Assembly: GCA_963977445.1 (NCBI GenBank) | Contig: CAXBPH010000104.1 | Location: forward strand, 1 to 21,512 | Length of the DNA: 21,512 nucleotides | Direction: 5' to 3' | Source: an uncultured bacterium | GTDB taxonomy: Bacteria; Hydrogenedentota; Hydrogenedentia; Hydrogenedentales; JAEUWI01 | Shown: positions 3,001 through 9,000 of the stretch, in pieces | Numbering within the stretch: position 1 is the first letter of the stretch | How the letters are laid out: each line of letters opens with the position of its first letter | Program-made: the position numbers

Positions 3001-6000
3001 ATTGCCGAAAGAATTTCTTCCGGGGAATACGGCGATTATGGTGCCCCATACGGACGATGGCCGCGTTCTTTTTGCGATTCCGTGGCACGACCATGTGGTG
3101 GTGGGAACAACCGATACACCCATCGACGATATTCCCGTCGAGCCCAAGGCGCAGGAGGAAGAGATTGAGTTCCTCATGACCCACGCCGCCCGCTATCTCA
3201 CGAAAGACCCCACGCCCGCCGATGTACGCAGTGTTTTCGTAGGGATTCGACCCCTCGTGCGGGGTGGCGGCGAAGAAAATACAGCGGCCCTGTCCCGGGA
3301 CCACAGCCTCACCATATCCAAAGGGGGGCTGGTCACGATTGCGGGGGGCAAGTGGACCACCTATCGCCACATGGCCGAAGACACGGTAGACCAGGCGGCG
3401 GTGCTGGCCGGGTTGGAAGAGCGTGCCACGGTGACACGGGAGCTCAATATTCACGGTTATCACAAACACGCCCAGGAGTTTGGTGCACTGGCGATCTACG
3501 GTACGGACGCCCGGGAAATTGAGGCTATCATTCGCGAGGACGCCACGTGGGCGGCACCCATTCATCCTGAGTTGCCTACCATTGGTGCGGAAGTCGTGTG
3601 GGCTGGTCGCGAGGAGATGGCGCGGACGGTGGAAGACGTGCTCGCCCGCCGGACCCGTTCGTTATTGCTTCACGCCCGGGCGAGTATCGAGGCCGCCCCG
3701 GCCGTGGCGAAGATTCTCGCCTTGGTGTTGGGGCGTGATCCCGAATGGGAGCGGGCGCAGGTGGATGCCTATGAAGCCTTGGCCGATGGGTATTTGCTGC
3801 GGTAAGGATGCTTGGTTTTCGGAGTGTTTTAAGATTTTTAAACCACAAAGAACACAGAGAGCACAAAGGGTGTTGTCCCCATCTTCCTTTTGTGTTCTCT
3901 GTGTTCTTTGTGGTTCAAAAGGTTTTTTCTTTTGAGTGAATTTGGTGTTTTCTGGCCAGAATAGGCGAATTTATAGGAGCCCGGATTCTTGCTCAACCCA
4001 ACCCAAAGACAGAAATTTGAGCGCCTCTCGAGGGTAGTTGCTGGGGTAGTGGATACCTGTTGTTCCAAAGCGTTTTGAGATTTTTAAACCACAAAGAACG
4101 CAGAGAACACAAAGGGTGTATTTCCCATCTTTTTTTTGTGTTCTCTGCGTTCTCTGTGGTTCAAAAGGTTTTGTTTTTTGAGTGAATTTAGTGTTTTCTG
4201 ACCAGAATAGGCGAATTTATAGGGGCCCGGGTTCTTGCTCAACCCAACTCCAAGACAGAAATTGGAGCGCCTCTCGAGGATAGTTGCTGGGGTAGGGGGT
4301 GCTTGTTTTTTCGACGTGTTTTGAGATTTTTGAACCACAAAGAACGCAGAGAGCACAAAGGGTATTTATCCCAATTTCTTTTTGTGTTCTCTGTGTTCTT
4401 TGTGGTTCAAAAGGTTTTGTGTTTTGAGTGAATTGCATGTTTTTATCTGGCCTGAGTAAGCGAAATCTATAAGTGCCCGGTTTTCACTCCACCCAACGTC
4501 AAGATAACTATTGGAGCGCCTCTCGAGGGTAGTTGCTGAGGTAGGGATACCTGTTTTTCCGAAGCGTTTTGAGATTTTGAACCACAAAGAACGCAGAGAA
4601 CACAGAGGGTGTTTATCCCCATTTTCTTTTTGTGTTCTCTGTGTTCTTTGTGGTTAAAAAGATCTTTCCTTTTGGGTGTATTACGTGTTCTTGTCCGGCT
4701 CCAATGAAAGAACCTATACTTAGCTCGTCCGTATCTTTCCCAGCCTCAGGCCTATCTCAGGAGCTCTTTTCCATGTACCCCCGATATTTTTGCACCGTTC
4801 TCGCGGTATTTTTTGCCTCATCTTTGCCTGTTATGGCCGAGTTACCCATTCCCGAAAACCCACAGTGGGAAGTCATCAAGGATGAAGTCTACCTCCAGGA
4901 ATCATCCCGACAAATCCTGAGCGAGACGCCCATTACCAGCGTCGCGGTATTTCAGGAGGGTGTCTACACGGGTGGCCCCGCAGGCCTGGCCAAACTGGAC
5001 GGCGAAGGACTTGTTCCGATTGCAGCGGTCACCGGGCCGATTACCCAATTGCACACCTATCTCGATGTGCTCTGGGTGGTGGGAGAGTCCGGGGTGTGGG
5101 CATTTGATGGAACTACCTGGCAGCCCATCAGCACGAAGCCCGTGGCCGACTTGTGTCTCCACAATGGCCATGTGGTGGGCCTCATGGATGGCATGGTCTA
5201 CGACGTGAGCTTTTCCGGATTGCTGGCGATGGGTGCGGAAGCCGCGCCGGGTCCACCCCTGCAAGGGCTGGCCTCCTATGCAGGCACGCTATACGTCCAC
5301 AATGGAAAACGAGTGGGCATCTTCGAAAACGGACGCTTTGCCGGTCAGTATCTGGCGGACTGGGGCCAGCTTACCCCGGGGGCAACGATTCGCGACATGA
5401 TGGCGTGGGGAAGTCGTCTCGTCCTGGCGACGGACAAAGGCCTCGCGATGCTTCGTGGTGCCACCTGGTATGCCACCACCGGAGAAGATGGGTTGCCCGT
5501 GGAGGATACGACGGCCCTGACGACGGGGTTTGACCACGATCTCTGGATTGGATCGCACCGGGGTGCCATGCGCGAGGTGGATGGAGAATTTCACTACTTT
5601 GGCCACCAGCGTTGGCTGCCAGACAATAACGTAAACGGTATCGCCACAACCGACCGGGCTGCGTACATCGCTACCGACGGCGGTCTGGGCATCATCGACT
5701 ATGAACCCTACACCCTGGCAAAGAAGGCCGCCTGGTATGAGCGCTGGATGACCGAATGGGGTCACAAGCGTCTTGGATTCACCCATTCCCTCGTGAAGCG
5801 CGATGGAGAATGGATACGTCACATAAGCGATAACGACGTGGGGTATAGCAGTCACTATTTCAACGCCCTGTGCTACAAATTCGCGGTTACCGGCGACCCG
5901 GCTGTCCGCGACGAAGCGTTGGACATGATGAAATCGGTGAAGTGGAGCGAAGAAATCACGTCCATCGATGGATTTCCGGCCCGATCCATCTGGGCCGTTG

Positions 6001-9000
6001 GAGATCAAGGAGACAAAGCCAAACATGGCTCCGGTGGCTTGCCTGCGGAGTGGAATCGCACCGAAGACGATAAATGGGAGTGGAAAGGCGATACGTCCAG
6101 CGACGAAATGGTGGCCCAGCACTACGAAACCGCCCTCTTTCTCGACATCATCGCCAATGAAGACGAAACAGTCTGGGCCACAGAGCATGTCAATCGCCTC
6201 ATGTCCCACCTGTTGGACAACGGCTTCGTATTGCGCGATACCGATGGGGAACCCACCCGTTGGGCCCGTTGGGACCCCGAGTATCTGCTGGCACCCAAAG
6301 GCTTCGCAGAGCGCGGTCTGAATGCCCTCCAGGCCCTGAGTTATATGGCCTCAGCCTATCACCAAACGGGCGACCCGAAGTTTCAGCAGGGCCAGGCCCA
6401 GCTTATCGAATGGGGATACCTCGATCAGGTGCTGCGCCAGAAACGTACCTTTCACCCCGGCTACTTCACCTGGTTTGACGACCGCCTGGCCTTCCTGGCC
6501 TATGGTCCCTTGCTCCGCTATGAGACCGATCCCGATTTACGCAGTCTTTATCTCCGCAGTCTGGAGCGCAGTTGGGAAGTGAAGCGGGTCGAACACCTGG
6601 CGTGGTTTAACTTTGTCTATGGTGCGGCAACCGGCAACGATTGCGAGACCGCCGAGGCCGTGAAGCATCTTCGCGAATGGCCCCTCGACCTCCGGGAGTA
6701 TTCCTATGAAAACTCTCACCGGGACGACCTCCATGGCGAAGAGGGCTACCGCATGTATTCCGAGCGCATTCGTTCCTTCAGTCCCCGCGAAACCCGGCCG
6801 GCCCGGTGGGACGATAATTGGCTTCAGATGGACCGACAGGGCGGCGGAAACAGCGTCACCGAGCCGGGTGGTTGGCTGGAAGCCTATTGGATGGGCCGCT
6901 ACTACGGCATGATAACGGCACCCCAGACCCAAGATGAAGCGTTGCTCACCGTGCCCCAACGGGGACTGCAACTGGGTGCGAAACCCTACACCGGGCCTTC
7001 GCGGCCGAAGTTGAAACACGAAGAGTAAGTTCCGGGACACTAGGCATCGAAGACCAGCCCGCCGTTTTGTGACACACCGCGCAAAACGGCGGGTTTCGTT
7101 TTGCCCTCGTTTTAACGCTCCCCGTGCGACATAGGTTTGCCTTCTATCCCGCTACCGTGCCATGCTCTTCCTTTGCTGTAATTCGCTTGCGGCTGCACCT
7201 CGTTGTATTACCCCGCGTTTTCGGAGAGCTTTCATGAATAAGTCGGTTCACTACCTTTTTACGGGGCTTATCGCCCTGTGTCCCCTCCATCTCCAGGCCC
7301 TCGAAGTAACGGGCGGCCTGACCCATCATCAGGTACTTCAATGCGATGACGACGGCACCGCCGACTTCGCCCTTACAGGGAGCGCGGTGACTGCCGGAAG
7401 TCTCGAAGCCCAGGTGGTGGGGGTACAGAAAACCATCGTCCCCTGGACGCCCATTGGTGAGGGGAACACCAGCTGGAACGCAACCCTCAACGACGTTCCC
7501 GTGGGTGGGCCCTACCGCGTTGACCTACGCATTGTCGTCGATGGCGCACCGGTCGAAGAAACCAGCATCTTCGACGTGCTTGTGGGTGATGTGTGGGTAC
7601 TCGCCGGTCAGTCCAACATGCAGGGCGTGGGGGATCGCCACGATGAAGATACCCCCGATCCCCAGGTCCACACCTTCTCCATGAGCTACGAATGGCGGCT
7701 GGCCCAAGAGCCCCTCCACACCTTGCCCGAGTCGCCTGACCCGGTCCATTTCGACCAGAACAAGAGCGCAGAAGAACGGGAAAAGGAAATCGTCAACTGG
7801 CGCGATGGTACGAAAGGAACGGGCCTTGGCCTGCCCTTCGCCAAAGAGATGCTCCGGCGCACGGGCCGTCCTGTAGGCCTGATCGCTTCGGCCCACGGCG
7901 GCACCTCCATGGGCCAGTGGAACCCCGAACTGAAGGACCAGGGAGGCGCGTCTCTCTACGGTTCTATGTTGCAGCAGGTGGCGGCCGCCGGTGGCAAGGT
8001 TCGTGGCGTGCTCTGGTACCAGGGCGAGTCCGATGCCAATCCCGATGCCACGCCCATTTTCCCTGCTGGCTTGCGTGCTCTCATTGCCGCCATGCGTGCT
8101 GATTTTGGCAATCCCGATTTGCCCTTCTATCAGGTTCAGATTGGACGTGTCGTTTTGGGGTGGAACCCCAATTCCTGGGATGCTATCCAAACTGCCCAGC
8201 TGGCCCTCGAAACCGATGTGCCCCATACCGGCACCGTGTCGGCCATCGACCTGGAAACAGACGATGCGATTCATATCAGTACCCCCGGCCTGAAGACGCT
8301 GGGCTATCGTCTCGCCAATCTGGCGGAAGCCGATCTCTTTGGTGGCACGACCCTTGTCGGCCCACGCTATGAATCCATGACCCGGAATGGCCTCCAGCTC
8401 TATGTGAAATTCAGCGGCGTCAATGATCGTTTGCTGGCCGAAGGACGTCCCAACGGTTTCTCCATCAGCGCGGGCCCCGATGGGGATGCGCCCCAGTCCA
8501 TCTACAAGGTGGAAATGGACCCCAATGACCCCACCGTATTAATTCTGTTCACCAACAACCAACTCCCTGAGAATCCCCACCTCTGGTATGGCCGGGGTAT
8601 CGACCCCTATTGCAATATCGTCGATGAAGCCCAGATGGGGATGCCTGTTTTTGGTCCTGTTCCGCTACCGTAGGGACGCCAAACCCGGGTGTCACGTCAC
8701 CCGATTTTTTGTTGAATTACACTATCGTTTATTCGTGGAGTTGTTTACCATGACCGATGGTTCTGAGGAGAATCCCAATGAATAAAAAGCACAGTTTAGT
8801 CCCTGTATTGGCCCTGATTGCCCTTGTGGCTGGCGTCACCCACGCCGCCGAACCTTCTTCAACGTATATCCGCGATTGGTTACTCACCGGTCCCATCACG
8901 CTGCAAGGACCCGACCCGGCGGCCCCGGATTTTAAACACCTTCAGGGCTTTACGCGCAATTACCTCGAATCCCAGGGTGAAGAAGGCGCCGTTCGGCCAG

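Follow-up and report, generated by a model that had tools for sequence, protein, structure and literature searches.

A secreted propeller-barrel protein family of Hydrogenedentota and Bacteroidota as a candidate glycoside hydrolase family with a GH76-like fold

Six-hairpin, or (alpha/alpha)6, barrels occur in carbohydrate-active families of different chemistry. Most six-hairpin families invert; GH76, with its retaining endo-alpha-1,6-mannanase or transglycosidase activity, uses an adjacent carboxylate pair as nucleophile and acid/base; and the beta-L-arabinofuranosidases of families GH127 and GH146 hold three conserved cysteines and a glutamate that bind zinc, a cysteine being the nucleophile. 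For the GH76 member BT2949, the pair Asp143-Glu144 was proposed, and the protein was inactive on yeast mannan, according to two reports (PMC4321491, PMC9213526). Enzymes of the AGE superfamily, which share the barrel, depend on two catalytic histidines, and Foldseek searches with compact barrels place them near the top, according to a further report (PMC13363691).

Here we describe a gene in a 21,512-nt stretch (the window) from an uncultured bacterium of the phylum Hydrogenedentota. The open reading frame on the forward strand at positions 4773-7028 was confirmed as initially annotated; it encodes a protein of 751 aa (P0001), with AGGAG at 4759-4763, 9 nt ahead of the ATG, and homologues measure 745-770 aa. 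A probable Sec signal peptide, as judged by eye from the sequence (residues 1-22; 4773-4838), precedes a seven-bladed beta-propeller of the type found in HTCS sensors (residues ~40-313; 4890-5711), an (alpha/alpha)6 barrel presumed to be the catalytic domain (residues 315-710; 5715-6902) and a C-terminal tail (residues 711-751; 6903-7025), the latter seen by alignment in the P0001 subgroup (C104, C51, C168 and C7) and modelled with pLDDT >90.

The protein had no match in Pfam, NCBIfam or PDB sequences. Likewise, the barrel drew no family from Pfam (2025), NCBIfam (June 2026), the PDB (single sequence and profile) or ESM Atlas, where the nearest named rows, PcRGLX_3rd (0.79) and GH76 (0.76), both lay below the bar of the tool. 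Reg_prop matches were obtained in relatives. The earlier statement that 120 listed homologues carry no Pfam family in the C-terminal domain needs an addition: PF23366 was reported on 7 of the 120, and in the one that was checked it sits on the propeller. A previous count of 2807 homologues at E<=1e-50 could not be recovered in that form: the search here scored 8000 candidates, of which 3559 reached E<=1e-3. No paper on the family appeared in the literature listings searched, which lack most subscription papers; supplements could carry members as hypothetical proteins.

Predicted models (pLDDT 95-96; barrel 94.9) bore out the two-domain architecture of the initial annotation, with 28 strands forming 7 four-stranded blades with velcro closure, followed by a barrel of 12 helices. 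As proposed earlier, the propeller most closely resembles those of the HTCS sensors 4a2l and 3v9f (Z 26.1; 4a2l with rmsd 3.1 over 261 aligned residues), and the barrel that of GH76 BT2949 (4v1r; Z 17.8, rmsd 4.5, 307 aligned, 8% identity). GH76 structures filled five of the top seven VIA rows for the barrel, aligned end to end, the top two rows being tied between 4v1r and the uncharacterised protein 7tem (Z 17.1). Structures of GH116, GH15-like, GH65 and MmpH proteins scored Z 14.7-15.9, the AGE superfamily Z 15.5, and GH88, GH105 and PL26 barrels Z 13-15. Among the full-length structure-search matches listed, which propellers dominated, no solved structure covered both domains. The propeller is missing from stand-alone relatives of ~407 aa and is probably non-catalytic; it may serve as a binding or scaffolding module.

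Profile-profile comparisons, made against thin template sets of 2-14 sequences, gave 5-27% probability for GH76 (6-7 sequences) with the catalytic pairs not aligned, 2.6% for AGE-like (5 sequences), 0.2% for GH127 (3) and 1.5% for GH88-like proteins (2). The maximum across these and other six-hairpin sets was 27%, versus 96% for the distant relative C61 and 100% for the stand-alone clade. In Foldseek, cellobiose 2-epimerases ranked first for the barrel (E 1e-4; TM about 0.5 or below), as would be expected of an AGE-type sugar epimerase or isomerase. The protein might also be a non-catalytic glycan binder, and members in which the SSDE motif described below reads SSDQ could be inactive binders. 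Both readings strike us as very improbable. The profile comparison with AGE-like sequences stayed at the value given above, the near-invariant, clustered acids favour catalysis, and the pair of catalytic histidines ascribed to AGE enzymes in PMC13363691 has no invariant counterpart: the best histidine columns are filled in 121, 106 and 103 of 135 sequences, and the first of these, His449, is Gln in P0001.

Conservation was counted over 135 propeller-bearing sequences, and the conserved residues are mostly carboxylates that dominate helix starts. Inner helix 2 opens with S442-S443-D444-E445 (6096-6107), whose residues are kept in 135, 131, 134 and 135 sequences, respectively; the motif had been numbered S441-S-D-E445, but residue 441 is Thr. 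D569-D570 (6477-6482), which opens inner helix 4 and was formerly taken as invariant, is kept in 123 and 113. A triad unmentioned in the initial annotation, D353-N354-D355 (5829-5837), opens inner helix 1 by the helix limits of the model and is retained in 134, 134 and 133 sequences; its acids are presumed to bind sugar or to act in catalysis. Across 285 aligned rows, SSDE occurs in 250 and SSDQ and STDE in 7 each, with 14 rows gapped there. D444 is kept in every outer clade (SSDQ, SSDK, SRDQ), and the stand-alone clade, which reads LSSDK in 79 of 120 rows, has Lys at the position of E445.

The pair D444-E445 opens helix 4 of 12, the second inner helix; in GH76 sequences, the corresponding helix comes after the YWxxA-helix hairpin and bears DD. 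Since GH76 has its catalytic pair at this place, the barrel would best be read as a retaining glycosidase, the residue-level match being deduced from helix count. By analogy with GH76, the active site would lie at the N-termini of the six inner helices, where D444 as nucleophile and E445 as acid/base would support a retaining double displacement, while D353/D355 and D569 might line the cleft and hold sugar hydroxyls. From fold, conservation, gene context and fusions we infer catalysis, residue roles, stereochemistry and substrate, and we see about an even chance that P0001 is a glycoside hydrolase secreted to the periplasm and belonging to an unclassified family, with a GH76-type pair and a phosphorylated envelope glycoconjugate as its substrate. 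Several points run against this reading: the pair was matched by helix counting, the rmsd is as high as 4.5, the top rows are tied, Foldseek favours epimerases, and E445 is replaced by Gln (7 of 285 rows) or, in the stand-alone clade, by Lys.

The same residues could be arranged as an inverting glycoside hydrolase, with acids facing each other across the cleft (for instance D355 with D569, or E673), as in GH15, GH63, GH125 and GH178, and D444-E445 binding substrate. D353 and D355 are indeed as conserved as D444/E445, D355 and D569 persist in the stand-alone clade that lost E445, the barrels of GH116, GH15-like, GH65 and MmpH proteins score within the range given above, and inversion is the rule among six-hairpin families. 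However, D569 is absent from C61 and is kept in 123 of the 135 sequences, E673 belongs to a subdomain missing from the stand-alone clade, E445 is present throughout the propeller-bearing set, and GH76 tops the fold ranking; we regard inversion as unlikely, albeit the strongest of the alternatives to a retaining enzyme.

The family is larger than the eleven paralogues, eight of them full-length at 680-790 aa, that were initially counted. The genome carries 13 barrel-bearing loci: at 10 of them the propeller-barrel gene is complete (nine encode about 680-790 aa, and one, fused to a phosphoesterase, 944 aa), 2 are truncated by contig ends and 1 is a stand-alone barrel; C61, with SSRDQ (E 7e-7), is a distant 14th relative. 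SSDE, previously given for all full-length members, holds for 11 of the 13, C415 having SSDQ and C274 SSDK. The family occurs in 112 of 121 genomes of the phylum and, within SusC/SusD loci (L095, L106, L112, L148, L149 and others), in 9 of 401 Bacteroidota genomes; clustering at 50% identity divides it into about 3,800 clusters. The paralogues may have diverged long ago into clade-specific specialists, each for other linkages within one substrate class.

Downstream of P0001, on the same strand, lie genes for a SASA-type carbohydrate O-acetylesterase (7162-8673; PF03629, E 3.9e-53) and a DUF4838 protein (8757-11351; PF16126, E 9.2e-110). Among 5 congeneric genomes, just 1 preserves this arrangement; the two genes are therefore weak evidence of function, and we reject a conserved operon. 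In some loci of Bacteroidota, DUF4838 homologues likewise accompany family genes, and the domain belongs to GH163/GH185 hexosaminidases according to PMC10570127. The sulfatase, apiosidase and SASA neighbours named in the initial annotation were all recovered (beside C51, twice beside C103, and beside P0001 and C328, respectively).

In eight Bacteroidota genomes picked regardless of neighbours, a set that may include relatives, we scored genes lying no more than 10 kb from a family barrel. Purple-acid-phosphatase-like genes (Pur_ac_phosph_N) were so placed in 5 of 26 cases versus 0.24 expected, and sialidase-like BNR_2 genes in 5 of 38 versus 0.49 expected, each in 4 genomes, whereas GH2 (0 of 13) and GH92 (0 of 14) were not. 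GH92, though present at 9 of the 93 loci mapped first, is thus rejected as a general partner, which weakens the argument for alpha-manno substrates. In four Hydrogenedentota genomes, read by eye, 0 of 18 phosphatase matches fell within 10 kb. Fusions join the family to Metallophos (C415, P0130), BNR_2 (P0164, P0169) and GH20 (P0142, P0390) domains; the long-fusion search listed just 2 of its 3122 candidates. Fold, pair position by helix count, the mainly carboxylate conservation without an invariant His or Cys, SusC/SusD loci and fusions to GH20, BNR and phosphoesterase domains together support the earlier proposal of a candidate new glycoside hydrolase family.

Of 53 mapped family-bearing stretches, 15 hold DHDPS-like or HpcH aldolases (a raw count), and aldolase genes often directly adjoin the family gene; in one clade, 3 of 4 members have HpcH within 6 kb. 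Such aldolases could split 2-keto-3-deoxy sugar acids released by an eliminase (lyase) or a GH88/GH105-like hydratase, for which conserved R333, R404, K438, Tyr549 and Tyr705 and the scores of the GH88, GH105 and PL26 barrels could also be cited. We hold this to be improbable, as no histidine is invariant, carboxylates dominate the helix starts, 0 of 13 barrels matched PF07470 or any lyase family, and the sialidase-like neighbours alone could supply the aldolases; for the BNR and DHDPS-like neighbours, no close solved relative names a substrate.

Because members sit beside phosphatases and acidic-sugar enzymes, the putative glycosidase probably helps to digest phosphate-decorated microbial surface sugars, and its likely substrate, from gene context, is a phosphorylated microbial envelope glycoconjugate. 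The substrate class would comprise glycoconjugates that carry phosphate together with keto-deoxy (ulosonic) acids and amino sugars; the most plausible source is microbial cell-envelope material recycled from dead biomass. Hydrogenedentota have been described as degraders of detrital biomass in PMC10866078. Phosphatases and phosphodiesterases would remove phosphate groups, sialidase-like enzymes and aldolases would handle the acidic sugars, and the propeller-barrel enzymes would cut neutral, possibly alpha-manno-configured, bonds. More specifically, and rather doubtfully, the family might supply missing glycosidases of Gram-negative lipopolysaccharide recycling: GH76-like alpha-heptosidases opening the phosphorylated inner core alongside Kdo-releasing sialidase-like enzymes, Kdo or heptonate aldolases, phosphatases, phosphodiesterases, GH20 and ceramidase-like amidases. 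Different core linkages would then fall to different paralogues, and SSDQ and SSDK variants, which lack the acid/base, might act where the leaving group is a good one, as in glycosyl phosphates.

Eukaryotic material offers another source, namely inositol-phosphoglycolipids, GPI or phosphomannan, or RG-II-like or algal keto-sugar polysaccharides. Neighbours in several loci include ceramidase, GDPD and GH92 (lipid or mannan) and GH143-like, GH140, GH106, GH78 and GH127 (RG-II-like or algal), apiosidases and a sulfatase neighbour family genes in the genome of P0001, and fungal mannan is a substrate of GH76 relatives. Yet GH92 was not enriched in the independent set, RG-II fits phosphatases poorly, and MurQ-like, YdjC, GH20 and DegT neighbours point to bacterial-type amino sugars, making a hydrolase for eukaryotic substrates improbable compared with one for microbial envelopes.

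New here are the phylum-wide spread, the placement in Bacteroidota SusC/SusD loci and the excess of phosphatase and sialidase-like neighbours. Almost all genomes of a widespread uncultured phylum carry multiple copies of a family without a name in Pfam, NCBIfam or the PDB, and free-living Bacteroidota have it in their polysaccharide utilization loci. Were its members hydrolases, they would make up a new CAZy family and give the GH76-type catalytic pair a second lineage; the context points to phosphorylated microbial envelope glycans, for whose environmental turnover few enzymes are known. Cultured carriers, Flexithrix dorotheae and Pleomorphovibrio marinus, make the envelope-glycan reading directly testable.

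Compared with known systems, the propeller is of the same seven-bladed type as in the Bacteroides hybrid two-component sensors BT4663 (4a2l) and BT3049 (3v9f), but these have two propellers followed by Y_Y_Y, a membrane helix and a kinase, whereas P0001 has one followed by a helical barrel, with no Y_Y_Y, membrane helix or histidine kinase domain. The AGE superfamily (cellobiose 2-epimerase, N-acylglucosamine 2-epimerase) shares the barrel, yet the P0001 family is secreted, rich in carboxylate motifs and devoid of the invariant His pair. To the GH127/GH146 enzymes, likewise six-hairpin barrels, there is a faint likeness around inner helix 1 (5opj, E 0.22; PF07944, E 0.078), and GH127 genes adjoin family members in 3 loci; in contrast to them, the family has no conserved cysteines (the sole column with Cys in at least 60 of 135 rows is C367, with 71 and otherwise Ser or Ala) and therefore no Cys-Zn catalytic site. 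From GH76 (BT2949, 4v1r; BT3792, 4c1s; Bacillus circulans Aman6; ShGH76) it differs in 6-10% identity, in PF03663 matches (0 of 13 barrels at E<=1 and none in its own genome), with no significant profile-profile match, and in the DDxxW tryptophan, positions 448-451 being G/A, H/Q, variable and F/Y with no Trp three residues past D444-E445; BT2949 is lined by the aromatics W82, W147, Y265 and F315. It adds the DND and (D)D motifs, long beta-hairpin insertions and the N-terminal seven-bladed propeller, and its neighbours are phosphatases and BNR proteins, not consistently GH92. With GH76 it nonetheless shares the best-matching (alpha/alpha)6 fold, secretion and a place in SusC/SusD loci; helix counting would also put D444-E445 where GH76 has its adjacent carboxylate pair (in BT2949 likewise Asp-Glu), opening the second inner helix.

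The P0001 gene (4773-7028, forward strand) opens with an ATG at 4773, preceded 9 bases upstream by AGGAG, and translates into 751 residues, of which 1-22, judged by eye, look like a signal peptide. An alternative longer frame would start with a GTG at 4632, inside a repeat: positions 3816-4691 carry a unit of ~246 bp repeated four times in tandem, with an inverted repeat of 32-35 bp in every copy, in what looks like a REP-type array. The palindrome of this unit has 16 matches on nine contigs, the remainder being unique to this stretch. Upstream lie genes for GntR, glycerol kinase and glycerol-3-phosphate dehydrogenase (228-3805, forward strand). 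Searches of Pfam, NCBIfam and the PDB sequences returned no match to P0001, whose nearest homologues with a name are Candidatus Hydrogenedentes proteins annotated as hypothetical, and a literature search at the level of listings retrieved no published description. Judged against those three databases, the proteins sharing its barrel would form a new family without a name.

Structure prediction resolved residues 310-723 into a barrel of 12 main helices (pLDDT 94.9), and the mature full-length model (pLDDT 96.2) also contains seven four-stranded blades, with an N-terminal strand closing the propeller. In a structure search, the propeller matched (Z 26.1) the sensor domains of hybrid two-component systems from Bacteroides, and GH76 proteins filled five of the top seven rows for the barrel. 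Its best match, 4v1r (Z 17.8, rmsd 4.5, 307 aligned, 8% identity), ties with the uncharacterised 7tem (Z 17.1), followed at Z 15-16 by GH116, epimerases, GH126, GH65 and GH9; Foldseek placed cellobiose 2-epimerases first (E 1e-4, TM ~0.5 or below). By these models the six-hairpin fold class is secure, and GH76 as the nearest family is only suggestive.

Conservation was assessed over 135 sequences, comprising the query, 30 close homologues and 104 of 150 representatives chosen by length (640-860 residues). S442, E445 and Y549 occur in all 135, D353, N354 and D444 in 134, D355 in 133, Y705 in 132, K438 in 131, R333 and R404 in 129, E673 in 128, D440 in 127, D569 in 123 and D570 in 113; no His or Cys is invariant among them, H449 being present in 121 and replaced by Gln in P0001. 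The DND, SSDE and DD motifs mark the starts of inner helices 1, 2 and 4, respectively, and in six-hairpin enzymes the cleft lies on the face where these helices open. In GH76 sequences the catalytic DD comes after the first helical hairpin, and D444-E445, at the same place by helix count, may be its equivalent. GH76 enzymes are described as retaining, acting via two adjacent aspartates, with BT2949 exceptional in that the second is a glutamate (PMC9213526); a further report proposes Asp143-Glu144 as the BT2949 pair and gives yeast mannan as not cleaved and the true substrate as not established (PMC4321491). Against a GH76-type pair count the hhalign comparisons of the barrel with six to seven GH76 sequences, which lend it no support (5-27%, catalytic pairs not aligned), and the replacement of E445 by Gln in 7 rows of a 285-row alignment and by Lys in a stand-alone clade (LSSDK in 79 of 120); inverting or lyase chemistry instead of retaining hydrolysis is possible. 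D444 is retained throughout, SSDQ and SSDK variants included, as would be expected if it were the nucleophile. Both phosphoesterase fusions belong to the SSDQ members, which in some loci stand in tandem with SSDE paralogues.

Searching with tblastn and scanning the six-frame translation with an HMM, we located 13 loci with the C-terminal barrel in the genome of the window. The initial annotation had counted only 11 paralogues and had numbered the motif S441-S-D-E445, off by one from the actual S442-S443-D444-E445. Ten loci are complete propeller-barrel genes, one of them (on contig C415) with an N-terminal metallophosphoesterase fused on; two are cut by contig ends (C51, C103) and one is a stand-alone barrel (C274). 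The C103 gene probably begins in a propeller fragment at the end of contig C44, although no overlap joins the two contigs. Eleven of the 13 barrels carry SSDE, C415 having SSDQ and C274 SSDK. Barrel identities are 21-67%, and the paralogues are therefore old. A distant 14th relative on contig C61 (HMM E 7e-7; hhalign 96%) is a secreted protein of 427 aa with MEDG and SSRDQ motifs (L147:5348-6631, minus strand). By eye, it adjoins MFS, NAD-dependent epimerase-like and DegT-like genes, and its ESM Atlas clusters, in Planctomycetota and Verrucomicrobiota, lack Pfam assignments. Together with the family it may belong to a wider superfamily without a name.

A profile of the 13 barrels matched 3802 representatives (50% identity), 917 at E<=1e-30. 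The family is present in 112 of 121 sampled genomes of the window's phylum, mostly in multiple copies, and in 9 genomes of a 401-genome Bacteroidota sample (centre genome counted in); the 80 closest loci also include records titled Planctomycetota, Verrucomicrobia, KSB1, Armatimonadota-like and Acidobacteria. The stand-alone clade of ~407 aa (247 of 3975 candidates; hhalign to the family 100%; motifs SQED and LSSDK) lacks the propeller and the NSHRxD subdomain, suggesting that the barrel can work without a propeller; one member is fused to PF03781. The C274 barrel (L012:1506-2729, minus strand) belongs to this clade. Unusual forms include P0121, with one SSDE and one SSDQ barrel, P0123 (3111 aa), with three STDE motifs plus Big_2 and LamG domains, and P0137, with a PDZ domain.

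Among 93 loci (13 from the window's own genome, 80 from close relatives), a purple-acid-phosphatase-like cluster neighboured the family gene in 18, a second metallophosphoesterase in 10, Gfo/Idh/MocA in 11, GH92 in 9 and a 3-keto-disaccharide hydrolase in 7. Five Bacteroidota genomes with wider stretches hold two to eight family matches each, accompanied by SusC/SusD pairs, GDPD, BNR, DHDPS-like and HpcH aldolases, GH20, YdjC, ceramidase-like, alkaline phosphatase, MurQ-like, DegT, GH127, GH143-like and DUF4838 genes. Since these genomes were partly picked for their loci, the link was tested in eight other Bacteroidota carriers from a random sample, which may not be independent, with expectations from genome fraction. 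A distance of 10 kb or less from a family barrel was seen for 5 of 26 Pur_ac_phosph_N matches (0.24 expected) and 5 of 38 BNR_2 genes (0.49 expected; two split matches each counted once), in four genomes each, and for none of 14 GH92 or 13 GH2 genes. Aldolase genes, labelled via BLASTP from Pfam-scanned examples, occur in 15 of 53 mapped family-bearing stretches, a stretch count only. Fusions agree with this pattern: the 11 representatives above 860 aa include one with a metallophosphoesterase, two with BNR_2 and one with GH20, and a separate search for long fusions gave a second GH20 fusion. Neighbours vary by clade. In Hydrogenedentota, family genes are scattered, and none of 18 phosphatase matches in four genomes fell within 10 kb of one; the SASA and DUF4838 genes beside P0001 keep this arrangement in one of five congeners. 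DUF4838 is given as the domain of GH163 and GH185 hexosaminidases (PMC10570127).

Elsewhere in the window, a calcineurin-like phosphoesterase lies 4.5 kb downstream of the P0001 gene on the opposite strand (11529-12668), and a probable lipoprotein of 739 aa has one PKD domain and is otherwise unannotated (18650-20869, forward strand). A beta-lactamase-family hydrolase fused to a NamZ exo-beta-N-acetylmuramidase (13184-15367, forward strand) suggests peptidoglycan recycling; beta-lactamase-family genes also occur near family genes in stretches L151 and L157. Other recurrent unannotated neighbour families of 600-1000 aa (L108:11378-13699, L108:14866-17346, L097:1311-3650, L071:15130-16971, L105:2025-5096), some with GH20b/GH67N-like N-termini and one with DUF1349 and CARDB, are candidate carbohydrate enzymes.

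A family member is probably a hydrolase of some kind. We give an even chance to a more specific proposal, in which it would act in the periplasm as a retaining glycosidase whose GH76-type pair is D444/E445, and the paralogues would form a set, each specific to a linkage of phosphate-substituted glycoconjugates containing keto-deoxy acids and amino sugars. LPS core heptoses are alpha-manno-configured. Sialidase-like proteins can be Kdo hydrolases, according to one report (PMC3573668), and Hydrogenedentota are described as detritus degraders in another (PMC10866078). For these reasons microbial envelope glycans fit best as the substrate, the LPS core in particular being an improbable hypothesis; inositol-phosphoglycolipids, phosphomannan or RG-II-like polysaccharides are possible instead.

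As to known families, identity with GH127/146 or with AGE epimerases was rejected, the defining Cys or His, respectively, not being invariant among the 135 sequences. Membership of GH76 was likewise rejected, the GH76 sequence test having failed. In contrast to GH76, the family has its own motifs and an N-terminal propeller; by analogy, its mode of action would nonetheless be most like that of GH76.
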